Made by a program: the position numbers and the translations under genes. From the NCBI GenBank assembly GCA_033720955.1, contig JAWWBN010000002.1:1-46819 (forward strand): a DNA stretch of 46,819 nt, written 5' to 3'. Every line of letters starts with the position of its first letter. Positions within the stretch are counted from its first letter, which is position 1. The notes beneath the pieces are model-generated. The model saw nothing but the letters and a program-made list of their open reading frames with translations, was not told the DNA's origin and searched no databases. Shown here piece after piece: positions 3,135 to 28,327 of the stretch. This stretch comes from Thermoanaerobaculia bacterium. GTDB taxonomy: Bacteria; Acidobacteriota; Thermoanaerobaculia; Multivoradales; JAHEKO01.

Positions 3135-3157
3135 AGGTCACGGCTTCGGCGGCGAGA

Positions 3158-3183: not shown

Positions 3184-3208
3184 CAGCTCCCTCCGCGGGC
3201 GACCGAGC

Positions 3209-4271: not shown

Positions 4272-7238
4272 ATGGACGGACGGCTCGGCGACGCCCTGGC
4301 GCAGATCGACCATCGAACCGGGGGCGGGCTGCGTACCGACCGGCTCTCCCGGGTCCTCTACTCGACCGACGCCTCGATCTATCAGGTCGAGCCCGTGGCG
4401 GTGCTGCTGCCGAGAAGCGTCGAGGAGGTGCACGCGGCGGTGGAGGTCGCCCTGGAGAACGACCTGCCGGTTCTCGTGCGCGGCGCCGGCTCGAGCCTGG
4501 CGGGCCAGGCGGTGAACCGCGCCCTGGTGCTCGACACCACGCGTCATCTCGATCGGATCCTGGAGCTCGATCGGGACCGCCGAACGGTCAGGGTGGAGCC
4601 CGGGATCGTCCTCGACGAGCTCAACCGCCGCCTGGCGCCCAGCGGGCTGCAGTTCGGGCCCGACCCGGCCTCCTCCGACCGGGCGGCGCTCGGCGGCGTG
4701 GTGTCCAACAACTCGACCGGAGCGCACTCGATCCTCTACGGCATGACCGCCGACCACGTCCTCGAGATGGGGGTGATCCTCTCCGACGGCTCGGCGGCGC
4801 GGCTCGCCCCGCTCGACGCCCGAGCCCTGGCCACGAAGCGGGCCGGCACCGGCCTCGAGGCCAGGATCACCGACCGGCTCGCCGCGCTCGTCGAGGATCC
4901 CGCGGGCCGGGAGGTCGTTCTCGCGGCCACGCCGCGCCACTGGCGTCGCTGCGGCGGCTACAACCTGGACCGGCTGGTCGCCCCCGACGACACGGAGCGC
5001 CCCTCCTTCCGCTGGCCGCGGTCCGGCGAGCCCGACCGCCGCTTCAACCTGGCGCGGCTGGTTTGTGGCGGGGAAGGGGGCCTGGCGGTGATCACCGACG
5101 TGACCCTGGGGCTGGTGCCGCGGCCCGCCGCGACCGCTCTCGCCCTGGTGAGCTTCGACCGTCTCGGCGACGCGATGGCGGCGGTGCCCGCCCTGCTGGA
5201 GTGCGAGCCGGCGGCGGTGGAGCTGCTCGACCGCATGGCGATCCGTCTCTGCCGCGGGGTGCCGCGGTACGCGCGGCTGCTCGCCGGCTTCCTGGAGGGC
5301 GATCCCGACTGCGTGCTGATCGTCGAGATGGCGGGCGAGCGCCCGGCCGAGCTCGCCGGACGGATCGACCGTCTGGCGATGCATGCGGGGCGCGCCACGG
5401 CGGCGGCGGGAGTCACGCCGGTGCTCGATCCGGCACGGCAGGCGGACGTCTGGACGGTGCGCAAGGTGGGGCTGGGGCTGCTGATGAGTCGCAAGGGCGA
5501 CAAGAAGCCCATCCCCTTCATCGAGGACGCGGCCGTCCCCGTGGAGCACCTGGCCGCCTACGTGGCCGAGATCGACCGCTTTTGTGGCGAGCGCGGCACC
5601 GAGGTGGCCTACTACGGCCACGCCAGCGCCGGCTGCGTCCACGTGCGGCCGCTGGTGGACACGAAGCGGGCGGAGGAGCTGGCGAAGCTGCAGGAGATCA
5701 CCGCCTTCTCGGTGGAGCTGCTGCGCGGCCACGGCGGCTCGCTGTCGAGCGAGCACGGCGACGGCCGGGTTCGGAGCTGGATCAACGAGCGCTTCTTCGG
5801 GCCCGACCTCTACCGGCTCTACCGCCGGGTCAAGGAGATCTTCGATCCGCGCAACCTGTTCAATCCCGGGACGGTGGTGAACGGTCCCCCCGTGGACGAG
5901 GGGCTGCGCTTCGGCGCCGGCTACCGCTCGCTGCCTGTTGCCACGCGCTCCGACTGGAGCGACGAGCTGGGCTTCGACCGCGCCGTCGAGATGTGCAACG
6001 GCGCCGGCGTCTGCCGCAAGACCACGGGCACGATGTGCCCCAGCTTCATGGTGACCCGGGAGGAGGAGCACTCCACCCGCGGACGGGCCAACGCCCTGCG
6101 GGCGGTCCTGTCGGGGCGCCTGCCGGCGTCCGAGCTGACGGGCCGGAGGCTCTACGACGCCATGGACCTCTGCATCTCCTGCAAGGGGTGCAAGGCGGAG
6201 TGTCCCTCCTCGGTGGACATGGCGCGGATCAAGACGGAGTTTCTGGCCGGTTACCACGCCGCCCGGGGAGTGCCCGTCCGTGACCGGCTCTTCGGCGGCA
6301 TCGGGACGGCGGCGCGCGCCCTGGCCGGGCCGATGGCCCCGGCGGTCAACGCGCTGCTCGGCGCGGGACCGTCGCGATGGCTGGTCGAGCGCGCCCTGGG
6401 CGTCTCCTCGCGACGGCCGCCGCCCCGCTTCGCGCGGCGTCCGTGGGAGGCGTGGTGGCGGCGGCGAGGCGGCTCCCACGTCTCCACCGAGGATTCGCGG
6501 GGACGGGTGGTCCTGCTGGTCGACACGTTCGCGAACTATCTTCACCCCGAGGTGGGGATCGCCGCCACGGAGCTGATCGAGGCGGCGGGCTTCGAGGTGA
6601 TCCCTTCGCGGCACGGCTGCTGCGGCCGGCCGATGCTGTCGAAGGGGCTGGTGGAGGAGGCCCGGGTCGCGGTGCGCGCCACCCTCCGGGCGCTGGCCCC
6701 GGCCGCCGAGTCGGGTCTGCCCATCGTCGGCCTCGAGCCCTCCTGTCTGCTGACCCTGCGCGACGAGGCGCGCTGGCTGCTGCCCGGAGACCCGCGGGTG
6801 GCGCCGGTGGCGGCGCGGGCCCAGCTCTTCGAGGAGTGGATCGCCGCCCACGCCGGGCCGGACCGCCGCCCCCTCCCCTTCGCCGGCCCTCCCCGCCGGC
6901 TCCTGCTCCACGGCCACTGCCATCAGAAGGCGCTCGCCGGCACCGGCGCGGCCCGCCACGCCCTGACCCTGCCGCCGGGCTGGCAGGTGGAGGAGGTGGA
7001 TTCCGGCTGCTGCGGAATGGCCGGCTCCTTCGGGTACGAGCGCGAGCACTACGAGCTGTCGATCGCGATGGCCGAGCGGCGGCTGGCCCCCGCGGTGCGC
7101 GACGCGGACCGCGACACGCTGGTGGTGGCCGGCGGCACTTCGTGCCGGGAGCAGATCGTGCACACCACCGGCCGTCGGCCTCTGCACCCCGCCCAGGCGC
7201 TGCGGCTGGCGCTGCCAGCGAAGGCGGAGCTGCTATAG
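4272..7238 (+). CDS. FAD-binding oxidase fused to Fe-S/CCG domains (YdiJ-like, GlcD-GlcF type oxidoreductase)
   Basis: 988 aa. It has an N-terminal FAD_binding_4-like segment (LPVLVRGAGSSLAGQAV). Ferredoxin-type motifs CNGAGVCRK..MCPS and CISCKGCKAECPS follow, then two CCG motifs (HGCCGRP, SGCCGMAGSFGY). An in-frame TGA lies 21 nt upstream of the ATG, and gagggga sits 7 nt upstream as an RBS. Confidence 0.9.
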   Translation: MDGRLGDALAQIDHRTGGGLRTDRLSRVLYSTDASIYQVEPVAVLLPRSVEEVHAAVEVALENDLPVLVRGAGSSLAGQAVNRALVLDTTRHLDRILELDRDRRTVRVEPGIVLDELNRRLAPSGLQFGPDPASSDRAALGGVVSNNSTGAHSILYGMTADHVLEMGVILSDGSAARLAPLDARALATKRAGTGLEARITDRLAALVEDPAGREVVLAATPRHWRRCGGYNLDRLVAPDDTERPSFRWPRSGEPDRRFNLARLVCGGEGGLAVITDVTLGLVPRPAATALALVSFDRLGDAMAAVPALLECEPAAVELLDRMAIRLCRGVPRYARLLAGFLEGDPDCVLIVEMAGERPAELAGRIDRLAMHAGRATAAAGVTPVLDPARQADVWTVRKVGLGLLMSRKGDKKPIPFIEDAAVPVEHLAAYVAEIDRFCGERGTEVAYYGHASAGCVHVRPLVDTKRAEELAKLQEITAFSVELLRGHGGSLSSEHGDGRVRSWINERFFGPDLYRLYRRVKEIFDPRNLFNPGTVVNGPPVDEGLRFGAGYRSLPVATRSDWSDELGFDRAVEMCNGAGVCRKTTGTMCPSFMVTREEEHSTRGRANALRAVLSGRLPASELTGRRLYDAMDLCISCKGCKAECPSSVDMARIKTEFLAGYHAARGVPVRDRLFGGIGTAARALAGPMAPAVNALLGAGPSRWLVERALGVSSRRPPPRFARRPWEAWWRRRGGSHVSTEDSRGRVVLLVDTFANYLHPEVGIAATELIEAAGFEVIPSRHGCCGRPMLSKGLVEEARVAVRATLRALAPAAESGLPIVGLEPSCLLTLRDEARWLLPGDPRVAPVAARAQLFEEWIAAHAGPDRRPLPFAGPPRRLLLHGHCHQKALAGTGAARHALTLPPGWQVEEVDSGCCGMAGSFGYEREHYELSIAMAERRLAPAVRDADRDTLVVAGGTSCREQIVHTTGRRPLHPAQALRLALPAKAELL

Positions 7239-16145: not shown

Positions 16146-17807
16146 TCAGTCGACGTAGCCCAGGGTGCGCAGATGCTGCTGGCGCGCCGCCAGCTCCTCC
16201 GGGGTGAGCGGCTGCAGGGAGTCGGGCTGTTCGCTCTCGACCGCGGCTCCTCCGGGCTGGATGTAGGGGACCTCCCAGAAGGCGAAGCTCCCGGCGTCGC
16301 CGCCCGGCGAGGGCGACAGGATCTCCGTCGCCACGCACAGCTCCACCCACCGGAGGGAGTGCTCTGCGAGATCGAGGTTCCAGCCGCGCCAGGTGCCCCC
16401 GGTCAGGTCCACGGTGTCCGCGAAGAGCTCGATCGGCCGATCGGAGCCCTCCGGCTGCAGTCGGAGGGCGAACCGCACCACGAGGTCGGCGTGGCCGGCG
16501 CGCAGCGCGTTGCGCTTGGCCAGCCCATAGCGGACGGTGGCGACGGCGTCGGCGGGCAGCAGCAGCCGGCGGCAGTCGTCGTTGGCGGCCAGGAAGGTGC
16601 GCCGCCGGCCGTCGATCACGACCTCCCTCAGGCCGCCGCGGGGCGTGAACTGGTAGACGCGCTTGTCCACGTAGCGGTAGCCGCGCGGCGGCGTCACGGG
16701 AACCGGCCGCGGCGGCGTTCGGGCGGCGAGCTGCGGGCAGTGGTCCCACGGATAGCGGTGGGGCCGCACCGGGTCGAACGGCGGCGTCCACTGCCAGACG
16801 ATCTCCCCCTTCCGGTCCACCTCGAAGACGCGACCGCCGCGGGTGGAGCCGATCAGGACGTTGCCGTTGGGCAGAGCCTGCTGGACGCCGCCGGTGGGCG
16901 AGAAGAAGTCGTCCGAGCGGTAGGCCCAGACGACTTCGCCGGTGGCCGGCTCGATCTCCAGGATCTCGCTCCGGCGGTAGGTGTACCGGTTGCCGTAGCC
17001 GTTGTCGAAGAGCTGGATCCGCCCCGCCCCGGGCCAGCCCGAAGGGGTCATCAACGCCTCGTGCTGCTTGTCGAGCTCGTGGTCGAAGAACCAGACGGGC
17101 TCCCCCGTCTCCCGGTCGATCACGAAGACGGCGTGCAGATTGCGGGCGCTGATCAGCAGGTTGCCCGGCCGGAAGCGCCGGTCGCCGGCGTCGTGGTGCC
17201 GGTTCTCGGGAAGCACCTGGACCGAGTTGACGTGGGTCGCGTCGCCCACCAGCTCGACGCCACGCTCCTCCAGCCACTCGGCCAGGTGCTCGCCGGCGCG
17301 CCACTCCCAGACGATCCGGCCGGCGGGGTCGATCTCGACCAGACGATCGGCGGGGTCGCCGTCGGCGGCTGTGATCACGAGAGTGTTGCCGTTGTCGAGC
17401 CGCCGCAGGTCGTGGTGGGGGAGGAGGTCCTCCCGCATCCAGCTCCAGACCGGCTGGCCCTCCCAGTCGTACTCGACGACGTCGCGGCCCAGGCCGATCC
17501 CCAGAAGATGGCCGTCGGGCAGCAGCCTCACCCGCGACTTGACCCGCGCCTCGGGCCAGGCGTGGACGACCCGGCCGTTGGCGTCGAACAGAATCGGCAC
17601 CCGTCGCCAGGAGAGCCCCAGGTTGACTCCGTACCAGGCCCGCTCCGGGTCGTGGATCGCGACCCAGTCGGGGGAGCCGAATCGCTCCCACGCCGCCGGC
17701 GTCTCGGGTCCGGGCCCCCCGGCTCCGCCGCCGCACGCGAGCGAGCAGGCCAGGGTCAGGGCGACGGGAAGAGACCGGATGGGTCCGGCGGAACGAGCTC
17801 TCCGCAC
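16146..17807 (-). CDS. Arylsulfotransferase (ASST)-like beta-propeller lipoprotein
   Basis: Lipobox LTLACSLAC. ASST-like segments are present: HHDLRRLDNGNTLV, THVNSVQ, LLISARNLHAVFVIDRETGEPVW, IQLFDNGYGN. The start is GTG with no clear RBS, so the start is uncertain. Confidence 0.7.
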   Translation of the reverse strand: MRRARSAGPIRSLPVALTLACSLACGGGAGGPGPETPAAWERFGSPDWVAIHDPERAWYGVNLGLSWRRVPILFDANGRVVHAWPEARVKSRVRLLPDGHLLGIGLGRDVVEYDWEGQPVWSWMREDLLPHHDLRRLDNGNTLVITAADGDPADRLVEIDPAGRIVWEWRAGEHLAEWLEERGVELVGDATHVNSVQVLPENRHHDAGDRRFRPGNLLISARNLHAVFVIDRETGEPVWFFDHELDKQHEALMTPSGWPGAGRIQLFDNGYGNRYTYRRSEILEIEPATGEVVWAYRSDDFFSPTGGVQQALPNGNVLIGSTRGGRVFEVDRKGEIVWQWTPPFDPVRPHRYPWDHCPQLAARTPPRPVPVTPPRGYRYVDKRVYQFTPRGGLREVVIDGRRRTFLAANDDCRRLLLPADAVATVRYGLAKRNALRAGHADLVVRFALRLQPEGSDRPIELFADTVDLTGGTWRGWNLDLAEHSLRWVELCVATEILSPSPGGDAGSFAFWEVPYIQPGGAAVESEQPDSLQPLTPEELAARQQHLRTLGYVD

Positions 17808-17909: not shown

Positions 17910-18545
17910 ATGTCGGAGCCGACCCACGTCACGATCGTCAGCGAGCGGGGCGAGATCGCGGGTCGTTTCCACGCCGGCGCCCCGGCGATCGTGCCGCGCG
18001 GCGCCGTGCTGGCGGTGGGCGGATACACCGGGGGCTTCGAGGGGCCGTCCGGAGCCTACGGGGTTCTCGGCGACACCCTTCCGCAACGGGGCATCCAGCT
18101 CCTACGTCTCGACTACAGGATCAAGCGCGCGCCCGGGCCGGTCGAGGAGGGCACCTGCGATGTCGCCGCCGGCATCGACTGGCTGGCGGGCAGAGGGGTG
18201 GAGAAGATCGTGGCGGTCGGCTTCTCGTACGGTGGAGCCCTGGTGGTGCGCGCGGCCCTCGACTCCGCGAGCGTCGTCGGCGTGGCGGCGCTGGCCACCC
18301 AGACCGCCGGGATCGGCGACGTCCGGCGTCTGGCGCCTCGTCCGCTGCTCCTGGTTCACGGCACCGCCGACCGAACCCTCCCGGCCCGTCTCTCGCGCCA
18401 GGTCTACGAGCGCGCGGGAGAGCCGCGGGAGCTGCACCTGCTCGACGGGGCCGGCCACTCGATGGCGGAGCGACGCGACGAGCTGCTGGAGATCCTCACC
18501 GGTTGGATCGACGGCGTTCTGCCGGCGCGCGAGCGGCGGCTCTGA
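17910..18545 (+). CDS. Alpha/beta hydrolase (dienelactone-hydrolase-like)
   Basis: This is the only coding-looking part of the 997-aa ORF. It has the nucleophile elbow GFSYGG and LLLVHGTADRT followed by GAGHS. Confidence 0.8.
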   Translation: MSEPTHVTIVSERGEIAGRFHAGAPAIVPRGAVLAVGGYTGGFEGPSGAYGVLGDTLPQRGIQLLRLDYRIKRAPGPVEEGTCDVAAGIDWLAGRGVEKIVAVGFSYGGALVVRAALDSASVVGVAALATQTAGIGDVRRLAPRPLLLVHGTADRTLPARLSRQVYERAGEPRELHLLDGAGHSMAERRDELLEILTGWIDGVLPARERRL

Positions 18546-18578
18546 CGGCGGCGGCTCCCGCAGCGGCCGGGGTGCGGC

Positions 18579-19910
18579 TCACCAGCGCGCGACCGCCTGG
18601 TCCACGAACCAGCGGAGCCGGGCCAGGACCTCGTCGCCGTCCACCTCGCCGAGGCGGAACCGCCGGGCCAGGCTGAAGGCGGTGACCTCGAGCTGGGAGC
18701 CGTTGGGGAACGGCAGGCAGGTGCCGTCCCGGATCTCCGGCCACGACTTCTTGCGGGCGGTGAAGGGGGCCGGCACCCGCAGCCGGTCGTCGGGTCGAAC
18801 GAAGTCGGGATCCTCGGGCCAGATGGCCCCGCCCCACTTCATCGTCTGACCGCGCACCAGGCTCAGCAACGGATTCTCGAAGCGCTCGTGGAACTTGTAG
18901 TGCCCGAAATCGACGAGCTGCGCCCGCGCCGGGTCGTCGTCCGACTGGCGGGCGATCTGGATGTTGACGCCGTCGAACTGCCGTGGCCCTCCGCTCGTCC
19001 GACCCACCCGGCGCAGCTCCTCGATCTGCTCGTCCCGCAGCTTCTTCTTGACCGTTCCCGCGTAGCGCACCTCGAGCTTGCCGTCGCTCTCCTTCAGGGC
19101 GAGCGTGGTGCCGGGCGTCGAGGAGGTGATGCCGTAGTTGCGGAGAAGCAGCTCGATCTCCAGGTAGAGAGCCTGCAGCTCCGACCCGAGAGTCGGCAGC
19201 TCGATCGCCTTGACCGCCCGCCGGTGGGCGCGCCGCACCTGTATCGCCGCCGGTGAAGACTGGCTCGGGTCGGGCCGCCATTTCATGTCGAATCCGGTGT
19301 CGAGGACGGCGTAGGTCGGCACCGAGGCCAGGTCGGGCAGGGCGCGGTGAAAGATCTCGTCGATCACCCACTGCGCGACCATGTCCAGGAACGCGCACCC
19401 CAGGTAGTGGAGCCCGTTGGTGTGGGCGCCGGCGAGCGACGGCCGCGCGTTGGGCCCGACGCCCGTTCCCTTCAGGTCGAGCAGCCCGCCGGCGCCACGG
19501 CCTCCGGCGCCCGGCACCGATCGAACGAGGGCCCGCCCGTAGCGGGTAGGGCGATAGGCGAGCGCGGGCCCGCCCGTCTCGATCGGAGTGTTGACCCTGG
19601 TCTGGCCCGCCTGGCTGCGGGAGATCACCGCCGCGTGTCGGAGCAGCCAGATGTCGAGGAGCTTGCGGATCTCCCCGCGGCGGGCCGCGATGTCGAGCCG
19701 CCGCAGGCGGGGGTGGCCTTCGAGGAGCCTCCGGTCTCGAAGGTGTGGAAAATCGTGCTGAAGGAGACCGTAGTCCGCGAAGACCACTCTCGCTCCCTCG
19801 AGCCGCAACACTTTCTCTTTTCGAAGCCCTCCATCTTCCAGATGGTCGGGAGCTCGCAGCAGCGGTCCGGCGGAGACCCGCTGCGGGATGGTCGAGTCGA
19901 CGCCTCGCAT
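18579..19910 (-). CDS. Hypothetical protein with SelO/protein-kinase-like motif string
   Basis: The ATG at 19910 is the first start after the AT-rich intergenic stretch. Motifs LLDLKGTGVGPNARP..HTNGLHYLGCAFLDMVAQWVIDEIF, FDGVNIQI and LVDFGHYKF follow the order LKGAG / HGVMN / DYG seen in SelO-type pseudokinases. No SD is visible and the resemblance is weak. Confidence 0.7.
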   Translation of the reverse strand: MRGVDSTIPQRVSAGPLLRAPDHLEDGGLRKEKVLRLEGARVVFADYGLLQHDFPHLRDRRLLEGHPRLRRLDIAARRGEIRKLLDIWLLRHAAVISRSQAGQTRVNTPIETGGPALAYRPTRYGRALVRSVPGAGGRGAGGLLDLKGTGVGPNARPSLAGAHTNGLHYLGCAFLDMVAQWVIDEIFHRALPDLASVPTYAVLDTGFDMKWRPDPSQSSPAAIQVRRAHRRAVKAIELPTLGSELQALYLEIELLLRNYGITSSTPGTTLALKESDGKLEVRYAGTVKKKLRDEQIEELRRVGRTSGGPRQFDGVNIQIARQSDDDPARAQLVDFGHYKFHERFENPLLSLVRGQTMKWGGAIWPEDPDFVRPDDRLRVPAPFTARKKSWPEIRDGTCLPFPNGSQLEVTAFSLARRFRLGEVDGDEVLARLRWFVDQAVARW

Positions 19911-20009
19911 TTTGTTTGACGAATGTTTCGTACTGCTGATATCATGAAACGCAACAATCCTGTAAAAGGCTCCTGAGCTCAGGAGCAAAACGAAGAGAGA
20001 GGCGGTTCC
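19911..20009. promoter_or_regulatory. AT-rich divergent control region: sigma70-like promoter for the + gene plus an 18-bp perfect palindrome
   Basis: TTGACG (19916-19921), an 18-nt spacer, then TATCAT (19940-19945). The perfect palindrome GCTCCTGAGCTCAGGAGC (19969-19986) is flanked by A-runs. RBS agagagagg precedes the ATG at 20010. The palindrome tgatatca overlaps the -10 element. Confidence 0.45.
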
Positions 20010-20471
20010 ATGCGCAACCGAGAAGTAGAGCCCTCTTCGACCTCCCCGGAGGTCCACCTGCCCACCGTGCTGGAGCTCGCGCTCCAGGATGCCCATCAGG
20101 AGGCGGCGTCGCGCGCCCGAGTCGCGGCGCGGGCCCTCGGCCTGTTCGCCGCCGGAGGCAGTGCCGAGGAGAGCGCCGAGGAGAGCGCCGAGACAGGGGC
20201 CGAGGAGAGTGCGGAGGAGAGCGCCGAGAAGGGCGCGGAGGAGAGCGCCGAGGAGAGTGCCGAGGCGAGCGCGGAGAAGGGCGCCGAGGAGAGCGCCGAG
20301 TACAGCGCCGAGAAGGGCGCGGAGGAGAGCGCGGAGGAGAGCGCGGAGTACAGCGCCGAGTACAGCGCCGAGAAAGGCGCCGAGGAGGGCGCGGAGGAGA
20401 GCGCCGAGAAGGGCGCCGAGGAGGGTGCCGAGGAGAGCGCGGAGTACAGCGCCGAGAAGAGCGCCGAATAG
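20010..20471 (+). CDS. Acidic tandem-tetrapeptide repeat protein, (A-E-x-S/G) x25.5, after a 51-aa unique N-terminus ending AAGGS
   Basis: ATG with an RBS and a candidate promoter. In this frame all repeat codons are GCS GAG NNS RGY, which is the genome-typical GC3 pattern. The +1 frame gives (PRRA)n using AGG/AGA Arg codons, which is atypical here. Confidence 0.7.
   Translation: MRNREVEPSSTSPEVHLPTVLELALQDAHQEAASRARVAARALGLFAAGGSAEESAEESAETGAEESAEESAEKGAEESAEESAEASAEKGAEESAEYSAEKGAEESAEESAEYSAEYSAEKGAEEGAEESAEKGAEEGAEESAEYSAEKSAE
20163..20468 (+). repeat. 12-bp tandem repeat, 25.5 copies (GCS GAG NNN RGY)
   Basis: Counted directly. The units are AEES x11, AEKG x5, AEYS x4, AEEG x2, and one each of AETG, AEAS and AEKS, plus a terminal AE. 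Synonymous variation (gcc/gcg, agc/agt, ggc/ggg/ggt) is scattered among the copies. Confidence 0.95.
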
Positions 20472-20492
20472 CGTGGATCCCGACCAGGTGCG

Positions 20493-20915
20493 CTAGGTGC
20501 GCGATGCTGGCGCGTCGGGGTCGGGTGACCAGAGCTCCAGCAGGTTGCCGTCCGGGTCGTAGAAGTAGTACGAGAGGGCCCGCATCCACTCGAGCGGTGT
20601 GGGCCCGAATACGTCCACCCCGGCGGATCGCACTCTCGCGAGGGCCACGTCGAGCCGCGAGCGCTCGACCTCCAGGGCGAAGTGGACGGGACCCCATCGC
20701 GGCGCCGGTCCCAGCGGCGAGTGCTCTTCGAAAAGAAGGCTTCCGGTGTGGAGCGCCAACCGCTGCTTCCGCTTGCCGTCGCGGACCAGAAACCAGGCCC
20801 ACGAGTCGTCGGGCTCGGACTCCGGCCGCAGGCCGACGACGTCTCGGTAGAAGGCGGCGGCGGAGGGCACGTCGGAGACGATCAGAACGATCTCGGAGAT
20901 GCCCGAGACGGTCAT
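20493..20915 (-). CDS. VOC family protein (glyoxalase/bleomycin-resistance/dioxygenase fold)
   Basis: 140 aa. ISEIVLIVSDVPSAAAFYRDVVGL, HFALEV and YYFYDPDGNLLEL are the typical paired beta-alpha-beta-beta-beta motifs. Its ATG overlaps the upstream stop as ATGA. Confidence 0.85.
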   Translation of the reverse strand: MTVSGISEIVLIVSDVPSAAAFYRDVVGLRPESEPDDSWAWFLVRDGKRKQRLALHTGSLLFEEHSPLGPAPRWGPVHFALEVERSRLDVALARVRSAGVDVFGPTPLEWMRALSYYFYDPDGNLLELWSPDPDAPASRT

Positions 20916-22141
20916 CCGCAGGTACGGCTCTCACCCTCGACCGCAGGGGGGTCGGGGATGTTGCGAGTCAGGAACTGCCAGAACTTGCAATGCTCCAGGC
21001 CGGGGACGGGGTAGAGCTCCCCGCGCTCGCGATCCCACGACAGGAGCGATGCCTCCTCCCCGTGCGGCTCGGTGACGCCGACGATCGAGATGCGCCTCCG
21101 TACCGACTCGAGCTGCTCCCGCACTGCCTCCCGGGTGGCGCCCTGGAGCACCACCCGATGGGGAATGGCGCGCATCGCATCGCCCACGATCCGGCCGTTC
21201 TCGTAGCGGTCGCCCGCCAGGAGCTGCATCGCCTTGCCCACGTTGAGTAGCAGCGGCCCCGGCTCCACGCGGTGCCAGCGGCCCTGCCGGTCGCGGGCTT
21301 GGAGCCCGGTCATGTTGTTGACCACCGAGGCCACGAAGTCGTAGTCCGAGTGCTCGTGGAGCAGGGTGGCGGCAAAGCCGCGGTTCCCCTCGAGATCCTC
21401 GACCGGGCGGATCTCGGTGCGCTCCAGGTCGGAGTCGGCTCCGTCGTACAGATAGAAGTTGAGCGACGACCAGTACCAGCCCCCGCAGCCGGCTTGCCAG
21501 ACGGCGCTGAGGTCGGCGACCTCGCGCTCCAGGCCGTCGTCGCCGTCGGTCCGGCCCGCCCGCTCCAGCAGCCGATCCAGAAGCTCCCGCCGCTCTTCGG
21601 CAACGCCGAGCCAGGCGCCGTCGACCGCGCTCCCGGTCGCCTCCGACCACCGGCCGGGCGGGATCTGCAGAAGCTCGAGCAGTCGGCAGAGCGCCTGGGC
21701 CCGGACGAACTGCTTGGCCAGGAAGCCCAGCACCAGCACCGGGTCGCGATAGACGTCCCAGAGCCGCTCCAGACGTACGAAGATGCCGCGCTGGGGCTGA
21801 TACTCGTCGGGGTCGTCCGAGCGCGTCCGGTCGGCGGGCCATACGGGGCCGTGGGGTGGCTGCCGTCCATCGTTGAAGCGGGTCAGCTCGTCGTGAAAGC
21901 CGCCCTCCCGCTTCAGGTAGCGACGGGCGACGCCATGGGCGCGGGGGATCATCTGCTGGATTACTCCGTCCCAGGCAGCCGGCAGCTCGACGGTGAAGGC
22001 GCCGTCGAGCCGAGCCGCCTCGGCGAAGGCGGCGCGCCGTTGTGCGGGAAGGTCCGGCAGCGGGACGCCGAGCTCGCGGAGGCGGAAGCTCTGGAGCCTG
22101 ATCGTGGGGAGGGAGAGATAGTCGACATAGCCCTGGTTCAA
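20912..22141 (-). CDS. 2OG-Fe(II) oxygenase-like protein (IPNS/flavonol-synthase-type C-terminal domain) with a long N-terminal region
   Basis: LLHEHSDYDF (H-x-D), TGLQARDRQGRWHRVEPGPLLLNVGKAMQLL and IPHRVV match the 2OG-FeII_Oxy pattern. I chose the TTG start at 22141, preceded by ggaaggggg and 6 nt. The longer 574-aa ORF would run through the divergent PhyH start. Confidence 0.65.
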   Translation of the reverse strand: MNQGYVDYLSLPTIRLQSFRLRELGVPLPDLPAQRRAAFAEAARLDGAFTVELPAAWDGVIQQMIPRAHGVARRYLKREGGFHDELTRFNDGRQPPHGPVWPADRTRSDDPDEYQPQRGIFVRLERLWDVYRDPVLVLGFLAKQFVRAQALCRLLELLQIPPGRWSEATGSAVDGAWLGVAEERRELLDRLLERAGRTDGDDGLEREVADLSAVWQAGCGGWYWSSLNFYLYDGADSDLERTEIRPVEDLEGNRGFAATLLHEHSDYDFVASVVNNMTGLQARDRQGRWHRVEPGPLLLNVGKAMQLLAGDRYENGRIVGDAMRAIPHRVVLQGATREAVREQLESVRRRISIVGVTEPHGEEASLLSWDRERGELYPVPGLEHCKFWQFLTRNIPDPPAVEGESRTCG

Positions 22142-22334
22142 GCCGAGCCCCCTTCCGGTCGCACCTCGCCGCGGCCGCTGCCGGGCCGCGCCGTCTCTGG
22201 ATGGATGTTGTGAAGCGAGCTTAGACCAGGTGCCGGGACCGCGCAAGAAGGCATGTGCGAAGCGTCGCCCGCTCTCGGAGGAGCCGATGTAAGATGACTG
22301 CATCTTCCATTCGAAACCTGGAGGTCGGCCCGCC

Positions 22335-23117
22335 ATGAGCTTCCTTCGAGCCTTCGAAGAGGACGGCATCGCCTTTCCGATTCCGGTTCTGGATGCCGAC
22401 GAGGTCCGCAAGTACCGCTCGGCTTTCGAACATCTCGAGCTCCTGCTGGGCGGCAAGAAGCAGAACCTCTCGACCGTCCACCTGCACTTCGACTGGGCGC
22501 GCGAGCTCGTCGCGCATCCCGCCGTGCTCGACGCCGTGGAGCCGCTGCTGGGACCGGACCTTCTGGTGCTCTCCACCCTGATTCTGAACAAGCACCCGCA
22601 CGACCCCGCCTTCGTCGGCTGGCACCAGGACGGCACCTACTGGAATCTGCACAGCGCCCCCACGGCGTCGGCCTGGATCGCCCTGACCGACAGCACCCGG
22701 GCCAACGGCTGCATGCGCGTGATCCCCGGGTCGCACCGGGAGACCATGCTCCCCCACGAGTGCACCTACGCCGAGAACAGCCTGCTCGGCCGCGGGGAGC
22801 AGGTCGCAGCGGAGGTGGACGAGAGCCGCGCGATCGACGTCGAGCTCAGGGCGGGGCAGATGTCCATCCACCAGAACGCCATCCTCCACTCGTCGCCGCC
22901 GAACGGGTCCGACCACCGTCGGATCGGCTTCATCATCCGCTTCGTCACCCCGGAGTTCGCGCACGCGACGGCGCCGGTGCTCCTGGCTCGAGGGCGCGCC
23001 GAGGGGGACCGCATGGAGCTCTGGGAGGCTCCGCCGCCGACGGACGTGAAGCGGGCGATCGCCGAGCGCGAGGCCTACGTGGAGGCGATGGCGGCGAAGC
23101 CGGCCGAGAGCCGGTAG
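22335..23117 (+). CDS. Phytanoyl-CoA dioxygenase (PhyH) family Fe(II)/2OG oxygenase
   Basis: GWHQDGTYW (H-x-D), the CMRVIPGSH region, and the distal His in IHQNAILHSS. 260 aa. RBS ggagg. Confidence 0.88.
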   Translation: MSFLRAFEEDGIAFPIPVLDADEVRKYRSAFEHLELLLGGKKQNLSTVHLHFDWARELVAHPAVLDAVEPLLGPDLLVLSTLILNKHPHDPAFVGWHQDGTYWNLHSAPTASAWIALTDSTRANGCMRVIPGSHRETMLPHECTYAENSLLGRGEQVAAEVDESRAIDVELRAGQMSIHQNAILHSSPPNGSDHRRIGFIIRFVTPEFAHATAPVLLARGRAEGDRMELWEAPPPTDVKRAIAEREAYVEAMAAKPAESR

Positions 23118-23132
23118 GGGCGGCGGAGCCGG

Positions 23133-25139
23133 TCAGCAGGCGCCGGGGTCGGTAGCCGGGGCGCCGTGCGCCGGCGCTGACGATCCGATGGTCACGAGGT
23201 CGACGTCGGGCGCGAACCCGAGCTCGAGGTCGAGGTCGTGGAGGATGTCCTCGCGGCACATCATGATCGCTCCCAGCCGCACCGCCCTGGGATCGGGCTC
23301 CGCGGCCTCGAACTGCTCGGGGGGCACGCCGTTGATCTCGGCGCAGACCTTGTCGGAGAGCTCGTTGAGGAACTCCAGGTGGTACTCCTCCGGCTTGTCG
23401 AACTCCGCGCCCCAGCGCACCAGGAAGTCCACGAAGACCCGGGTGATGGCGGGGTGGAGCTGATCGGGGTCGTCCAGGTTGCGGTGCAGCCGGCGGTAGA
23501 CCGGCGGCAGCAGAGACCGGAGCTCGCGTCGGAAGGCCAGTGGCACCGGCGCCTTGAATGACAGCGCCGTGGGCTCGTAGGAGCCCGAGCTCTCGAGCTC
23601 GATCTGGTGGGCCAGCGACGGCACCATCTGGTGGCTGAGCAGACGCCGGATGTGGGCCTGCATCGTGAGGAGGATGGTCAGTCGGTGCCAGAGCGACGGC
23701 GCCACCTCCCGGCAGACGTCGGTGAGCTCGTCGATGGCGTGGCGTGCGCGGTCGTTGAGCAGTGAGCGCCGCTCCAGATTGTCGATCAAGTCCCGGCGGC
23801 TGCGGTCGGAGAACTGCGGCTCCGGGATCTGCGGCGGCCGCTCGAGCAGCTTCATCCAGCCGGTGTTGCGCTTTTTTATGTTCTTCCAGCGGAAGAGATC
23901 TACGTATAGATCGCGATAGCCCTCCATCAGCTCCACCCGGGTCATCAGACGCGGAATGGTGTTGAAGTAGTAGCCGTCGAGGTTGTCGGTGAAGCGCCCG
24001 CGCTCGAAGGCACCGGCCTCGGTGACCACCTGACCGCGCTCGACCATCTTGCGCCAGAGGGGAGTGCCGTGCGGGGCCTGCAGGATGGTCAGCGCCGGAA
24101 CGGGGATCGAGGCGGTCTGGTGGAACTCGAAGAGGCGCCCGAAGGTGCTCGAGTCGTCCTCGTCGAAGCCGATGATGGTGTTACCGCGCAGGGCGATGCC
24201 GTAGGACATCATGCGGTGCGCCTCGGCCACCAGGTCCTTGTTGAGGTTCTGCTTCTTGTTGATGTTCTTGAGCGTCTCGGGGTTGATCGACTCGATGCCG
24301 ATGAACAGGACGGTCATACCCCCGTCGGCGGCCAGCTCCAGAAGCTCGGGATCCTTCGACGCGTTGGTGGTGGCCTGGGTGGAGAACGAGATGGTGTGCT
24401 CGAGCTCGCGGTTCAGGTCGCGCATGCCTCGCAGCAGCTCCTTGGTGTACCGCCGGTCGCCGACGAACTCGTCATCGGTGATGAACGCCGTTCGGAACCC
24501 GCGGCGGGCCAGCTCTCGGATCTCGTCGAGAACCCGCTCCACCGGCTTGTGCCGCATCTTGCGCCCGAAGAGATAGATCACGTCGCAGAAGTCGCAGTCG
24601 AAGGGGCAGCCCCGGGTGGTCTGGACCGTGCCCATCGCGTAGGCACTGCAGTCGATGCCGTCCCAGTCGGGCGCCGGGCTGTCCTCCAGCGACGGCTTGG
24701 TGATCTGGCGGTACTCGTCGCGGTGCTCGCCCGCTGCGAGATCGCTCAGAAACTCCGGCCAGGTCTCTTCGGACTCGCCGATGAAGAGCACGTCGAAATG
24801 CTCGCGGTACGAGCGCGGGTGGACCGAGACGCCGGGGCCGCCCACGCCGGTCAGGACGCCTCGCTTGCGAAAGACGGAGGCGATGCGGATGGCGTGGTCG
24901 ATGTGGCCGGAGTAGCCGGTGACGCCCACGAAGTCGTAGTCGCGGTCGAAAACCGTCTCGTCCGTGATGCGACCCTTCACCGGCTCGTCCCAGAGGTCCA
25001 CGTGCACGTGGCCGGGAGTCAGCGCCTTCAGGGTGGACAGGGTCAGCGGCGCCAGGTCGGCGACGACCTCGTGTCGAGCGTCCATGGTGGTCCAGCCGCA
25101 GGGTATCCGGTACTCGGGACCGACGATGAGGACGTTCAT
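23133..25139 (-). CDS. B12-binding domain radical SAM protein with a long C-terminal (DUF4070-like) extension
   Basis: RBS ggagg lies 4 nt before the ATG. It has an N-terminal Rossmann-like B12-binding region (DFVGVTGYSGHIDHAIRIA), the radical SAM cluster motif CPFDCDFC, and a helical tail of about 250 aa. Confidence 0.92.
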   Translation of the reverse strand: MNVLIVGPEYRIPCGWTTMDARHEVVADLAPLTLSTLKALTPGHVHVDLWDEPVKGRITDETVFDRDYDFVGVTGYSGHIDHAIRIASVFRKRGVLTGVGGPGVSVHPRSYREHFDVLFIGESEETWPEFLSDLAAGEHRDEYRQITKPSLEDSPAPDWDGIDCSAYAMGTVQTTRGCPFDCDFCDVIYLFGRKMRHKPVERVLDEIRELARRGFRTAFITDDEFVGDRRYTKELLRGMRDLNRELEHTISFSTQATTNASKDPELLELAADGGMTVLFIGIESINPETLKNINKKQNLNKDLVAEAHRMMSYGIALRGNTIIGFDEDDSSTFGRLFEFHQTASIPVPALTILQAPHGTPLWRKMVERGQVVTEAGAFERGRFTDNLDGYYFNTIPRLMTRVELMEGYRDLYVDLFRWKNIKKRNTGWMKLLERPPQIPEPQFSDRSRRDLIDNLERRSLLNDRARHAIDELTDVCREVAPSLWHRLTILLTMQAHIRRLLSHQMVPSLAHQIELESSGSYEPTALSFKAPVPLAFRRELRSLLPPVYRRLHRNLDDPDQLHPAITRVFVDFLVRWGAEFDKPEEYHLEFLNELSDKVCAEINGVPPEQFEAAEPDPRAVRLGAIMMCREDILHDLDLELGFAPDVDLVTIGSSAPAHGAPATDPGAC

Positions 25140-25261
25140 GAGGCCTCCGCTGGCGCTGCGGTCGTTGCGGGCGTCAGCGGCGCGCGGGTCGCCCGCTCCG
25201 CCCGATCAACCTCTTCTTGTGAAGCTGAGTGCCGGTCGAGCTTAGCACAGGCCCGTTGTGA

Positions 25262-26353
25262 TCAGTTGCGAATCTTCAACAGATAGCCGCGGGGATTCCA
25301 GGTAACCAGAAACTTCTCCCGCTCCGGATCCATCCGGAAGCGCGGGTCCTCGGCGAGGAAGTCGTCGATCGCCTCCATCGGGCCCGGCCCGAAGTCCGGC
25401 TTGGTGGGATGGCCGTTGAGGTTCGAGTCTTCTACGATCAGGTAGCTGCCCGGGGTCACCAGGTCGGCGTAGGCCTTGAGCTCCGCGTAGACGTGATCGC
25501 GACGGTGATCGGAGTCGAGCACGACGAGCACCGTGGCGCCCTGCGGAATCTCGGCGCGCACCCGGCGCAGCGTCTCCTCGGCGGTGGAGGGTCCCAGCAG
25601 GAAGGTGATCTTCTCGTGCTCCGGCAGCGGGTCGCTGTAGGGCTGCAGGTCGATGCTCACCACCCGGCCCCTGCCGACCAGCTCGCAGATATGGGCGAAG
25701 TAGAGGGCGCTGCCCCCCGCGCAGGTCCCGGTCTCGACGATGAGATCGGGCCGCAGCTCGGTGATCATCTCCTGGTAGACCCACATGTCGAGCGGGCACT
25801 TGAAGGTCGGAAATCCCATCCAGTAGGTCTCGCTCCAGGTCTTGCCCAGCAGGTAGGCGTCGAAGTACAGCTTCTGAAAGTCGCGGATCAGACGCCGGAT
25901 GCGGTCCGAGTCGAGCTCGGGGCTGGTGCGATGGTTCGGAATGAAGGTCTCGATGTGGCGATCGGGGAGGGTGAGAAAACGGGCCTCCGTCACCGCGCCG
26001 TCGCACAGCGCGAGCCGCAGCGTGAAGTCGCTGGCGAGCGGCCCGCCGTTCTCGCCGCTCCAGGTCATGCGACCCAGGAGCACCACCTCGCCGTCGCCAA
26101 TGACGGAGCGGGTCAGCTCCACGGACTCGGGGGTGCGCCGCCGGTGGACACGGTCGAAGAAGCCGCGCACGGCTTCGCGACCTTCGTGCCGCGTTCGGCC
26201 GAACAGCTCGGAGTGCTCGAAGACGCCGTCGCCCTTCCAGTCGGTGAGCCAGCGCACCCCGGGGTCGAGCAGCTCCAGGAGGGGCGTGACGCCGGCCTCG
26301 GGCAGGCTCTCGAGAGCCTGGGCGGCGCGGTGGGCCAGGTCGTGGACGTCCAT
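25262..26353 (-). CDS. SnoaL/NTF2-like domain fused to a CmcI (cephalosporin hydroxylase family) class I methyltransferase
   Basis: The ATG at 26353 is preceded by gagaggag. The C-terminal half (WMGFPTFKCPLDMWVYQEMI, IVETGTCAGGSALYFA, VVLDSDH, YLIVEDSNLNGHP) matches the CmcI family. The N-terminal 125 aa or so has an NTF2-like pattern. The rest of the 551-aa ORF overlaps the sulfotransferase gene and is rejected. Confidence 0.85.
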   Translation of the reverse strand: MDVHDLAHRAAQALESLPEAGVTPLLELLDPGVRWLTDWKGDGVFEHSELFGRTRHEGREAVRGFFDRVHRRRTPESVELTRSVIGDGEVVLLGRMTWSGENGGPLASDFTLRLALCDGAVTEARFLTLPDRHIETFIPNHRTSPELDSDRIRRLIRDFQKLYFDAYLLGKTWSETYWMGFPTFKCPLDMWVYQEMITELRPDLIVETGTCAGGSALYFAHICELVGRGRVVSIDLQPYSDPLPEHEKITFLLGPSTAEETLRRVRAEIPQGATVLVVLDSDHRRDHVYAELKAYADLVTPGSYLIVEDSNLNGHPTKPDFGPGPMEAIDDFLAEDPRFRMDPEREKFLVTWNPRGYLLKIRN

Positions 26354-26388
26354 CGGGTCTCCTCTCGTCGCCGCCTCCAGCGCGGCGG

Positions 26389-27138
26389 TCAGTCGTCCAG
26401 CGAGGTCATCTCGCCCTCGAACTCGGTGCCGGCCAGCGCACGGGCGAGCTCGTCGTAGTTGGCGATCAGGTCGCGCAGGTCGCGCGAGTTCTGCTTGACG
26501 CTCCGCGGCTCGAGCGGCTCCGCCACCGGCGTCTGGCCCAGGAAGCGCAGCAGCCGGTTCTGCACCGAGAGCTCGCCCAGCTCCTCGTAGCTCGCCTCCG
26601 CCCAGCTCTGCCCGTCGGCCTCGAGGGACGAGCGGATCTCCCGGTAGTAGGCGCGGTCGAAGTCGACGTGGTCGCGGAAGCGGGCGGGGTCGACGGCGAC
26701 CCGGGGCCGCTCGGCGGCGAGCTCCTTCTCGCTGTACGCCTCCCACTGTCCGAGGCGCTCGGAGATCAGCGACGAGACGAAGGTCTTGAGGCGGTTGCGC
26801 CGCCGCAGCACGATCTTCTTGAGCCCCGCGTCTCTCAGCAGACGGGGGAAGACCGCCTCGTTCTGACGGTGGGTGAACTTGAAGCCGACGCAGGGCCGGC
26901 CGAAGGGGTGCTCCCACAGCCTGTCGAGAAAGGCCAGGGGATCGGCTTCCCTTTCTTCGACGCTTCCCAGCCGGAAGCCGCTCTGCCGCAGGTCGAGCGC
27001 CACCCAGACCCCCTTGGGGTTGAAGATCTCGTGGTGGCAGAGGATGGCCGGATGGGAGTCCAGCATGGTGCAGAGCATGTTGCTGCCGGAGCGGGGCGCG
27101 GCCAGGATGACGAAGCGCTCGAGCTCCGCGCTCACCAT
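26389..27138 (-). CDS. PAPS-dependent sulfotransferase family protein (Stf0-like)
   Basis: It has the 5'-PSB loop AAPRSGSNML and a 3'-PB-like RRRNRLKTFVS. Its ATG (27136-27138) overlaps the upstream stop (27132-27134) within ATGGTGA. Confidence 0.8.
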   Translation of the reverse strand: MVSAELERFVILAAPRSGSNMLCTMLDSHPAILCHHEIFNPKGVWVALDLRQSGFRLGSVEEREADPLAFLDRLWEHPFGRPCVGFKFTHRQNEAVFPRLLRDAGLKKIVLRRRNRLKTFVSSLISERLGQWEAYSEKELAAERPRVAVDPARFRDHVDFDRAYYREIRSSLEADGQSWAEASYEELGELSVQNRLLRFLGQTPVAEPLEPRSVKQNSRDLRDLIANYDELARALAGTEFEGEMTSLDD

Positions 27139-28181
27139 TGGAGGACGACTCCCAGAGTCCCGGCTGGGTCGTCGCTCAGGCCGCGGTAGCCGCACGCGGC
27201 GTCGGCCGCGCGGAGACGGTGGGTGATCAGCTCGCGGGTGGTGAGCTCACCCTGGGCGAGCATCTCCAGGAACAGCTCGCCGTGGCGGCGGGAGGTCCAC
27301 CGGTCGTCGAGCGAGCCCTCGGCCGGATGGGAGAAGCCGTGCGCTCCGAGGATGGTCAGGCTGGGTCGGTTGCAGAGGTCGTGGAAGTCGAAGTGGCTGG
27401 GACCGCGGGGGCTGCTCAGGAGGAGAAACCGCCCCTGCCGCCGCACCAGGCGGGGCGCGGCGGCGAGCACCGTGGGCTCTCCCGTGGCCTCGATCATCAC
27501 GTCGACGCCGGAGGCGCCGTGGCGGTCGCGGAACCGCCGGCGCACCTCGCGGTCGCGAAGGTCGCCCGGGAAGCCGATCAGCCGTTGTGACGGGGGCAGT
27601 CGGGCCATGCGGGCGGGCGTCACCTCGAACGCGTAGATCCGGCGCACGCCGATCCGCAGGCAGAGGCGGCAGACGAGCTGGCCGAGGACCCCCAGGCCGA
27701 CCACCCCCACGGTCTCGCCCCAGGTCACCGCAGCGCGGCGCAGGCCGTTCATCGCCACCTTCCCCAGGGTCGCGAAGACCGCCTCCTCCGGCGAGACGCC
27801 CTCCGGCAGGGCGGCCACGCGGTCCTCCGGCGAGAGCGCGAAGCGCTGGTGGCCGCCGTGATTGTGGACCGTGCGGCCGATCCAGCCCGGGTCCACTCCC
27901 TCGCCGACCGCCTCGACCCTGCCGACGTTCGAGTAGCCGGCCAGCTTGGGGTAGTGGGTCAGATCGCCCCAGCGCTCGCCGGTGGCCGAGGCGTGGAGAA
28001 GGGTCAGCTCGGTGCCGGCGCTGATCAGCGAGCGGACGGTTCGCACCAGGACCTGCCCGGGCTCGGGGGAGGGAACGTCGAGTGCGAGCGTCTCCACGAC
28101 GCCGGGCGCCGTGAAGGCCACGGCCAGGTTGCCGCGGCCCGATGGCGCGTCGCGAGAGACATCGTCTCGAGGCGAAGACAT
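27132..28181 (-). CDS. MDR-superfamily (zinc-type alcohol dehydrogenase-like) oxidoreductase
   Basis: GroES-like N domain (PGQVLVRTVRSLISAGTE..GYSNVGRVEAVGEGV) and a Rossmann motif (VGVVGLGVLGQL). No SD precedes the ATG at 28181, so the start is uncertain. Confidence 0.8.
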   Translation of the reverse strand: MSSPRDDVSRDAPSGRGNLAVAFTAPGVVETLALDVPSPEPGQVLVRTVRSLISAGTELTLLHASATGERWGDLTHYPKLAGYSNVGRVEAVGEGVDPGWIGRTVHNHGGHQRFALSPEDRVAALPEGVSPEEAVFATLGKVAMNGLRRAAVTWGETVGVVGLGVLGQLVCRLCLRIGVRRIYAFEVTPARMARLPPSQRLIGFPGDLRDREVRRRFRDRHGASGVDVMIEATGEPTVLAAAPRLVRRQGRFLLLSSPRGPSHFDFHDLCNRPSLTILGAHGFSHPAEGSLDDRWTSRRHGELFLEMLAQGELTTRELITHRLRAADAACGYRGLSDDPAGTLGVVLQW

Positions 28182-28327
28182 GCCGTTTAGAAAGTGCAGA
28201 TCCCGCGTCTAAAGGGGGTAGAGACTTAGTGTATGATAGATCCACAGTTTCGCTCACAAGTCGAGTTCGGTGCCGAATCGCCGCGGTGAGGCCGTCGCTG
28301 GCCTGCGCCGCGAGGAGGTGGAGCCAG
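28182..28327. promoter_or_regulatory. Divergent intergenic region with locally AT-rich tracts (probable promoters for both operons)
   Basis: tttagaaagtgcagatc and tagagacttagtgtatgatagatccacagttt stand out in otherwise GC-rich DNA. TATGAT is a possible -10 element, but I found no convincing -35. Confidence 0.3.

Follow-up and report, generated by a model that had tools for sequence, protein, structure and literature searches.

A tandem-repeat gene divergent from a kinase-like gene

The stretch of DNA analysed here (the window) comprises 46,819 nucleotides of contig JAWWBN010000002.1 from a Thermoanaerobaculia bacterium (Acidobacteriota; assembly GCA_033720955.1) and contains, at positions 20010-20471 of the forward strand, a gene for a small protein made largely of tandem tetrapeptides. 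This ATG-to-TAG open reading frame (ORF) of 153 aa begins with 51 unique N-terminal residues, followed by 25 in-frame tandem units of the form A-E-x-(S/G), encoded by a 12-bp repeat array (20163-20468), and by a last A-E and the stop (GCC GAA TAG). Divergent from it, on the reverse strand at 18579-19910, lies a gene for a 443-aa protein with a predicted kinase-like fold, which comparison with other genomes identifies as its conserved neighbour. Tandem Repeats Finder delimited the array at 20163-20467 (25.4 copies, score 342, consensus GCCGAGGAGAGC) and found no other such 12-bp array in the window. Cut in register, it consists of eleven AEES, five AEKG, four AEYS and two AEEG units plus AETG, AEAS and AEKS once each, all 25 being perfect 12-nt units with zero indels, and the third residue is always E, K, Y, T or A. 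These figures reproduce exactly the unit counts and the limits on the third residue given in an earlier note written from the letters of this DNA. Read from the preceding Ser, the same array forms 26 (S/G)-A-E tripeptide cores. Nucleotides 1, 2, 4, 5, 6 and 11 of the unit are invariant across the 25 units, and variation is restricted to the wobble positions of the Ala and Ser/Gly codons, the variable codon and an A/G exchange that toggles between Ser and Gly. The encoded protein has a net charge of -34, no Cys, no predicted globular domain and no signal peptide.

As the genome has a GC content of ~72%, open frames by themselves carry little weight. The repeat frame resembles the confident genes of the window in its GC content by codon position (GC1/GC2/GC3 = 0.72/0.52/0.95), and the 51 N-terminal codons give 0.80/0.55/0.82. 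Two antisense readings were discarded: the frame continuous with the neighbouring gene lacks any ATG, GTG or TTG upstream of 20096 and reaches only 0.72 in GC3, and the antisense SALS frame is not an ORF. A scan of the region against Rfam gave no family, with just one chance sub-threshold match. A sigma-70-like promoter at 19916-19945 (+), TTGACG-18 nt-TATCAT with a TG ahead of the -10 box (10/12 matches), points into the repeat ORF and is the only promoter-like site in 19700-20700, where shuffled sequences predict 0.1. The ribosome-binding site (RBS) GAGAGG is found at 19997-20002 (+), 7 nt 5' of the ATG. The ORF at 20010-20471 is thus a real gene for a small protein. The earlier view of a coding repeat that is maintained and has a promoter and RBS of its own stands, given the codon-position GC content and the fact that Ala, Glu and Ser/Gly codons vary at wobble positions only. 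An 18-bp perfect palindrome (GCTCCTGAGCTCAGGAGC, 19969-19986), situated between the -10 box and the RBS, could be an operator or a hairpin in the 5' untranslated region; its RNA fold scores no better than shuffled sequences (z = -1.05), and the palindrome is not kept in the closest relative of the locus.

This closest relative, whose kinase-like enzyme is 60% identical to that of the window, comes from a Thermoanaerobaculia metagenome-assembled genome (MAG; locus L001) and is syntenic with the window over ~17910-30184, at 60-81% protein identity. The exact site of the window ORF is occupied in L001 by an 86-aa gene encoding M(GAER/GAEK)x21, preceded by a promoter (TTGACC-17-TAATAT) in the same position and orientation and by an RBS (GGAGGG) 5 nt ahead of the ATG. 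Its repeats use all four Gly codons, both Ala codons found there and both Glu codons with zero replacement in A, E and G, and the one irregular unit, of 15 nt, is still in frame. The L001 protein has no Ser, Thr or Tyr and a net charge of +1. The earlier note had seen the Ser residues in S-x-E contexts and the Tyr residues in acidic contexts as possible phospho- or sulfo-acceptors; conserved acceptors of this kind find no support, given their absence from the orthologue, and the polyanion and hydrophilin roles also offered there are weakened by its charge, though most other members of the family described below are strongly acidic. Three assemblies of this relative (L001, L002 and L215) are identical in DNA and are therefore counted as one, uninformative on repeat stability.

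A putative kinase-fold partner enzyme

The 443-aa product of the divergent gene matches no Pfam or NCBIfam family, and a look-up of the window's own protein found nothing on record. Its family counts more than 117 proteins, from Acidobacteriota, Myxococcota, Bacteroidota and others. Its AlphaFold2 (AF2) model, based on a 42-sequence alignment, has a pLDDT of 92 and a pTM of 0.93, and the nine best Foldseek matches of this model in the PDB are YdiU/SelO structures (probability 0.75-0.96), followed by Rio, MAP and other kinases. Two residues are invariant in the family, K147 (in LLDxKGxG) and D334 of the DFG motif, and N316 is near-invariant; the protein also has a basic segment, VRRAHRR. No canonical HRD Asp stands out; position N-3 is taken by an acidic residue instead. 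Because the kinase-like model is confident and the Lys and DFG Asp are invariant, with the Asn nearly so, the modelled protein is probably an active enzyme with a protein-kinase-like fold. It is SelO/YdiU-like in fold only and does not belong to SelO/YdiU by sequence.

A family of glutamate-repeat proteins

Direct searches for the repeat protein were of little help. Pfam and NCBIfam hold no family for it, a word-indexed protein search with the 153-aa sequence gave a single low-complexity match (P0001), and the exact protein is absent from a collection of 15 billion proteins (exact-sequence cluster look-up). An exhaustive phmmer search of 1.84 billion representatives returned 140 matches, among which the 40 short ones inspected, some of them aligned over the N-terminal region, were low-complexity look-alikes without the N-terminal motif described below. 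Examples are anti-sigma-factor-like proteins with a transmembrane segment and long SAAEKSAQ or SAKDSAQ repeats (P0275, P0263 and P0278), which are unrelated. A permissive DNA pattern scan of Genome Taxonomy Database (GTDB) genomes, set at 4.5 AE-x-(G/S/R) units, produced more than 119 matches, which were discarded as Rpn/YhgA-type AEGR runs and non-coding simple repeats. These were unrelated AE-x-G runs, none of them beside cluster enzymes. The statement in the earlier note that no described family with this repeat is known agrees with what we found in Pfam, NCBIfam and the literature; our literature searches turned up neither the enzyme family nor precursors of this kind. The repeat protein is not an orphan: it belongs to a family beyond the reach of sequence search alone.

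That family came to light through the enzyme, whose alignment was used to sample 46 metagenome loci and 33 loci from GTDB genomes, scanned in all frames. In ~18 loci from Acidobacteriota, Myxococcota and others, a small Glu-repeat gene is divergent from the kinase-like gene in the same position (L130, L131, L134, L135, L138, L140, L141, L142, L149, L166, L181, L184, L187, L189, L204, L205 and possibly L195). The repeats are SAEF/SAEP/SAEL/GAEF tetrapeptides in L134 and L166, with the same architecture as in the window; EExAF, AEHAY and TAEA units in L135, L140, L181 and L189; SAExx or TAEAT pentapeptides together with ATAE/TAEx tetrapeptide-type units in L138, L141, L149, L184 and L204; GGGGEExP octapeptides in L142, L187 and L205; and heptads in the possible member L195. 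In L130 and L131, which have the next-closest enzymes, the small divergent gene becomes an Ala/Glu-rich repeat exactly at the contig end. L204 comes from the complete genome of a cultured myxobacterium, Minicystis rosea DSM 24000 (CP016211.1, ~1,475,714-1,484,760), and its protein has ~52 (S/G)-A-E cores; within this locus the repeat gene occupies 2847-3887 (-) and the kinase-like gene 3962-5269 (+). The usual core is Ser, Gly or Thr followed by Ala, Glu and one or two variable residues, with periods ranging from 4 to 8 residues (4, 5, 6, 7 and 8); Glu is the only residue found in every repeat type. Most members are strongly acidic, with net charges of -16 to -52.

Closely related pairs of loci reveal how these genes change. 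Between L135 and L140 the enzyme genes share 88% nucleotide identity and the repeat genes 82%, the latter being set apart by indels measuring 33, 9, 3 and 54 nt and by 17/18/56 substitutions at the three codon positions; L149 and L184 differ by the insertion of a single in-frame 19-aa unit. The indels between relatives are all multiples of three, and repeat number therefore changes, always in frame. The earlier note had regarded a frame broken in close relatives as the mark of a non-coding microsatellite; in these relatives the frame is intact, the indels are in-frame and the third codon position has an excess of substitutions.

Most repeat proteins of the family share with the window protein an N-terminal motif, HxEAAxxARxAA (family consensus H-x-E-A-A-x-x-A-R-x-A-A-x-x-V/L), which in the window covers residues 27-47 (DAHQEAASRARVAARALGLFA, 20088-20150, +). 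A profile built solely from six other loci, the window being excluded (consensus stHaeAAenARqAAesv), matches the window protein with 17.3 bits, compared with a mean of 0.28, a standard deviation of 2.07 and a maximum of 11.3 in 2000 shuffles. A second N-terminal module, YYELHLxxGxxxRVG, is present in L131, L138, L141, L149, L184 and L204. In a single-sequence AF2 model of the window protein (pLDDT 84), the motif lies in a helix (residues 17-47) that breaks at GGS before the repeats continue as one long helix, which is weak evidence because the pTM is just 0.38. The Gly-Gly at residues 49-50 had been likened to a double-glycine leader junction. That likeness fades on comparison: the GG is not kept in relatives, the window has neither a C39 peptidase nor an ABC exporter, and Nif11 and NHLP models do not match the window protein. 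Its unique N-terminus thus appears, by sequence comparison, to be a conserved motif and not a double-glycine leader.

The type of partner follows the phylogeny of the enzyme. In a neighbour-joining tree of 68 enzymes, partners with motif-type repeats fill two clades (5/5 and 4/4, the latter including the window), YYELHL-type partners another (5/5) and GGGGEExP partners a further one (3/3). In one enzyme clade, a gene for a class-I S-adenosylmethionine (SAM) methyltransferase always follows the kinase-like gene. Both the neighbourhoods and the tree accordingly bear out the kinase-like gene, which the earlier note had pointed to in the same island, as a conserved partner of the repeat gene. Taken jointly, the coding status of the repeat gene, its membership of a family, its conserved pairing with the enzyme gene and their clade-specific co-inheritance can be accepted with high confidence.

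Several loci show other kinds of small or unusual genes around the enzyme. Directly downstream of the repeat gene, L135 (1756-3507), L140 (1897-3717) and L181 (1433-3346, -) have a gene for a secreted protein of ~640 aa without Pfam match, adjoined by a PIG-L-like protein and conserved in one clade at 61-64% identity. L198, from a Thermoanaerobaculia MAG, carries ERFSEHP heptad repeats (~4456-5616, +) that share the strand of the kinase-like gene and lie at its 3' end or beyond it; they could be a fused or downstream partner variant. Small same-strand ORFs immediately upstream of the kinase-like genes in L144 (275-652), L173 (3763-3942) and L194 (3643-3912, +) have a HAAAAxRAR-type motif and no repeats, and may represent a third partner type. 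A 1904-aa protein without Pfam match beside the kinase-like gene of L003 was considered and is not a repeat protein.

Peptide-modification contexts of the enzyme family

Some relatives of the enzyme are found in settings typical of ribosomally synthesized peptides with post-translational modifications (RiPPs). In a clade of seven enzymes, four (L147, L152, L158 and L200) are accompanied by small divergent genes for peptides with a Nif11-like leader and a Cys-rich C-terminus. The Nif11 model is the only NCBIfam match of the L147, L152 and L158 peptides (E = 2e-5 to 3e-3), and the L200 peptide is identical in sequence to that of L158. In L158 (1540-6227) the Nif11-like peptide adjoins a LanM (DUF4135 + LANC_like), which suggests that the kinase-like genes beside such peptides provide an uncharacterized tailoring step in some lanthipeptide clusters. 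In M. rosea, and only there, a radical SAM/SPASM gene comes right after the repeat gene on the same strand. No ATP-grasp domain was detected in any neighbour examined. The repeat gene itself has two traits of a RiPP precursor gene, being a small ORF co-inherited with a candidate enzyme and combining an N-terminal motif with hypervariable repeats (L001 being without the leader).

Genes related to GTP-derived metabolites were also seen near the kinase-like genes of several clades (L131, 1962-2978; L140, 8900-10696; L181, 8726-9139; L004, 13601-14209; window, 30209-31384). They comprise a small radical SAM gene, tentatively QueE-like on a weak Pfam match, beside a 6-pyruvoyl-tetrahydropterin synthase (PTPS) gene; PTPS together with RibD_C; and GTP cyclohydrolase II.

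Other genes in the window

Convergent with the kinase-like gene lies a gene with Pfam similarity to alpha/beta-hydrolases (S9/S33-like; 17910-18515, +), 63% identical to its counterpart in the same position in L001/L002 and conserved only in this closest relative; its product is a candidate processing enzyme. On the other side of the repeat gene extends a set of genes that we call module B (20493-31384), presented here as context and not as a demonstrated part of the system. It encodes a VOC/glyoxalase protein (20493-20915, -), a 2-oxoglutarate (2OG)-oxygenase-like protein (20912-~22303, -), a PhyH protein (22335-23117, +), a B12-binding radical SAM protein with DUF4070 (23133-25139, -), a SnoaL+CmcI methyltransferase (25265-26353, -), a sulfotransferase-like protein of 249 aa (26392-27138, -), a zinc-dependent alcohol dehydrogenase (27138-28121, -), a WD40 protein (28667-30184, +) and a RibBA GTP cyclohydrolase II (30209-31384, +). 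The ORF called at 20912-22636 (-; 574 aa) is over-extended, its first ~110-140 codons being antisense to the PhyH gene; comparison with L001/L002 indicates that the 2OG-like protein probably has ~431-463 aa and starts at the ATG at 22303.

Module B has the same order in L002, at 65-81% identity, and recurs with shuffled order in L126-L129, L132 and L133, on Acidobacteriota-type contigs which have neither the kinase-like nor the repeat gene; conversely, more than 12 loci have the pair of repeat and kinase-like genes without module B. Since module B and the pair are separable, we rejected module B as the primary partner of the repeat gene, whose only constant partner is the kinase-like enzyme. 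The link to a sulfotransferase drawn in the earlier note falls with this result, as the set to which the 249-aa gene belongs occurs elsewhere without the repeat gene, and the arylsulfotransferase gene at 16146-17807, also tried as a partner, lies outside the conserved synteny block. Module B probably encodes a small-molecule pathway, and its pairing of WD40 with GTP cyclohydrolase II presumably recalls ToxC/ToxB of toxoflavin biosynthesis. Far from these genes, a 1032-aa ORF without Pfam match (36-3134) contains tandem repeats of 81 bp and 159-162 bp (at 1397-2318) that encode Cys-rich 27-aa units, CDDGxFCNGxExCN....

Possible function of the repeat protein

From the logic of gene neighbourhoods, our best explanation, at about even odds, is that the repeat protein is a ribosomally made substrate, with a leader and multiple cores, that the kinase-like enzyme modifies at many sites; among the roles offered in the earlier note, the comparative evidence favours this one, the multi-core modified peptide precursor. 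The enzyme would dock on the N-terminal motif and use a nucleotide triphosphate to modify each repeat unit. Glu is universal and the closest orthologue contains no Ser, Thr or Tyr, which makes the invariant Glu the most plausible target; it would be converted to an acyl-adenylate or acyl-phosphate, as by SidJ, whose kinase fold activates a Glu carboxylate as an acyl-adenylate (PMC6858067). Where a hydroxyl residue is present, nucleotidylation or phosphorylation might take place instead, as in SelO/YdiU and the lanthipeptide kinases. Lineage-specific tailoring may then follow, by the SAM methyltransferase in one clade, by the radical SAM/SPASM enzyme in M. rosea and perhaps by the radical SAM, PhyH and methyltransferase set in the window, and the outcome would be a protein modified at many sites or else a short modified peptide in many copies. 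A bolder version, which we hold to be quite improbable, would make these kinase-fold enzymes a new, class-defining family for RiPPs or post-translational modification, with iterative nucleotidylation or acyl-activation of the Glu of each (S/G/T)-A-E unit. A single small protein would thereby yield dozens of identical modified tetra- or pentapeptides or a poly-modified polymer, the units perhaps being conjugated to a GTP-derived heterocycle supplied by the recurrently co-located GTP cyclohydrolase II, PTPS, RibD_C or QueE-like genes.

A number of observations weigh against the substrate reading. The status of substrate rests on gene-neighbourhood logic, and for this exact locus there is in effect a single independent close relative, L001, which is devoid of the leader motif altogether. 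About three quarters of the ~85 sampled enzyme loci have no nearby repeat gene and sit among glycosyltransferase, capsule or NRPS-like genes, and the kinase-like fold also covers small-molecule kinases. The structural likeness of the enzyme to YdiU/SelO is weak (TM-scores of 0.20-0.28, 0.27 for the best match; E ~3e-3), its family profile has no match among PDB sequences, and hhalign of the family against E. coli SelO gives a probability of 0.3. The Nif11 matches of the L147, L152 and L158 peptides fall under the curated cutoff. Finally, Pfam and NCBIfam detect no RiPP recognition element, PqqD-like domain or known class-defining maturase in the window, and the conserved block holds no C39, ABC or S8 gene that could provide a leader peptidase or exporter.

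The main rival reading is that the repeat protein is an acidic, mostly helical non-substrate partner (a regulator, inhibitor, activator or scaffold) whose N-terminal motif binds the enzyme and whose repeats serve as a spacer or an electrostatic element, as calmodulin activates SidJ or antitoxin-like inhibitors act on their partners. A conserved divergent pair with a shared motif would suit any physical partnership, the window has no protease or exporter, AF2 draws a single long helix through the repeats, and their sequence and period vary as widely (4-8 residues) as expected of a low-specificity spacer. Yet the (S/G/T)-A-E core with its purely synonymous variation is stricter than a spacer requires, and the helix comes from a single-sequence model with a pTM of 0.38. 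Sister clades, moreover, pair the enzyme with Nif11-like-leader, Cys-rich peptides, in one case beside a LanM, and these peptides are substrates and not regulators; the repeat gene of M. rosea, for its part, shares its orientation with a radical SAM/SPASM gene. We consequently judge a non-substrate role unlikely, if the most serious of the alternatives. The repeat protein might instead be a precursor for the enzymes of module B, subject to proteusin-like C-methylation and hydroxylation. RiPPs are indeed tailored by B12 radical SAM enzymes and Fe/2OG oxygenases, both the window and L001/L002 have the repeat gene embedded where module B ends, and the weak NCBIfam matches of the radical SAM protein include RiPP C-methyltransferases. 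These subfamily matches are, however, all far below the curated cutoffs, and the WD40 and GTP cyclohydrolase II genes point to small-molecule chemistry; module B is found in six other loci (radical SAM identity 52-67%) without a repeat gene, and the repeat gene in more than 12 loci without module B, all of which makes this assignment improbable.

Two further explanations dispense with any enzymatic partner. A stand-alone polyanionic disordered protein, such as a hydrophilin or a metal- or mineral-binding protein, would agree with the charge of -34 here and of -16 to -52 in most members and with the lack of Cys and of a predicted globular domain; we see it as very unlikely, however, given the +1 charge of the closest orthologue and the absence of a signal peptide, and it leaves the conserved N-terminal motif and the clade-specific pairing with the enzyme unexplained. 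That the array is a non-coding 12-bp minisatellite, open in one frame by chance, could be argued from its being a simple repeat within GC-rich DNA, in which long ORFs often arise spuriously, from the exact protein being missing from the 15-billion-protein collection and from the similar short AE-x-G runs that arise by chance in many genomes. Such an origin would hardly produce 25 units with zero indels in which three of the four codons vary only at wobble positions or by the Ser/Gly toggle, nor a promoter, RBS and ATG kept in the orthologue, an N-terminal motif conserved at the protein level, and, between relatives, indels divisible by three and substitutions in excess at third positions (17/18/56). 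Together with the lack of a Rfam match, this makes a minisatellite extremely unlikely.

Relation to known systems and significance

The logic of the system is a variant of the leader-plus-multi-core RiPP theme in which the architecture and the partner enzyme are new. Multi-core RiPP precursors, such as those of Kex2-processed ustiloxins and phomopsins, of cyanobactins and of plesiocin-like graspetides, also repeat a short core behind a recognition region, adjoin a gene for a modifying enzyme (a candidate one here) and vary in repeat number among relatives. In contrast with them, the units described here have 4-5 residues and abut directly, without spacers or protease sites, in up to ~55 copies; class-defining enzymes, such as an ATP-grasp enzyme or a PatA/G protease, are lacking, as are Kex2-type sites; a kinase-fold enzyme without Pfam family is the constant partner, and release of the units is hypothetical. 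Nif11-leader and prochlorosin-type precursors likewise combine a helical N-terminal leader with a hypervariable C-terminal part, and the same kinase-like family adjoins Nif11-like-leader peptides divergently, in L158 along with LanM. The window protein differs from them in lacking a Nif11 or NHLP match and Cys, its GG is unconserved, and neither a LanM nor a C39 exporter is encoded in the window.

Concerning the enzyme, SelO/YdiU AMPylases and UMPylases are its best structural matches and comparable to it in their kinase-like fold, in which the partner enzyme has its Lys and DFG Asp invariant and its Asn nearly so, whereas SelO shows no sequence or profile similarity to it (the same hhalign probability of 0.3) and a TM-score of just 0.27, and the HRD Asp is not evident in the partner enzyme. 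The parallel with the SidJ glutamylase lies in a kinase fold that activates a Glu carboxylate, Glu being the only universal residue of the repeats. The LanKC, LanL and LxmK kinase domains of class III, IV and V lanthipeptides are similar in that a kinase fold acts on a leader-bearing peptide, which is a prediction in our case. Those domains, however, phosphorylate Ser/Thr for elimination with lyase and cyclase partners, whereas here Ser and Thr are missing from the closest orthologue and there is neither a lyase nor a cyclase.

Neither the repeat protein nor the enzyme is covered by a model in Pfam, NCBIfam or Rfam. Genes of this kind escape current genome-mining tools, being low-complexity, often uncalled, assembly-breaking and beyond homology search, next to an enzyme without Pfam model. 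If the two proteins are indeed an enzyme and its substrate, they would constitute a new family of ribosomal precursors, with 20-55 spacer-less cores of 4-5 residues behind a short helical leader, and the kinase-fold protein would be a new tailoring enzyme, spread over Acidobacteriota, Myxococcota and further phyla that are under-explored. The presence of the pair in the cultured and fully sequenced M. rosea DSM 24000 makes this hypothesis directly testable. Even if the repeat protein were a non-substrate partner, the pairing would provide a first functional context for more than 100 kinase-like proteins so far annotated as 'hypothetical'.

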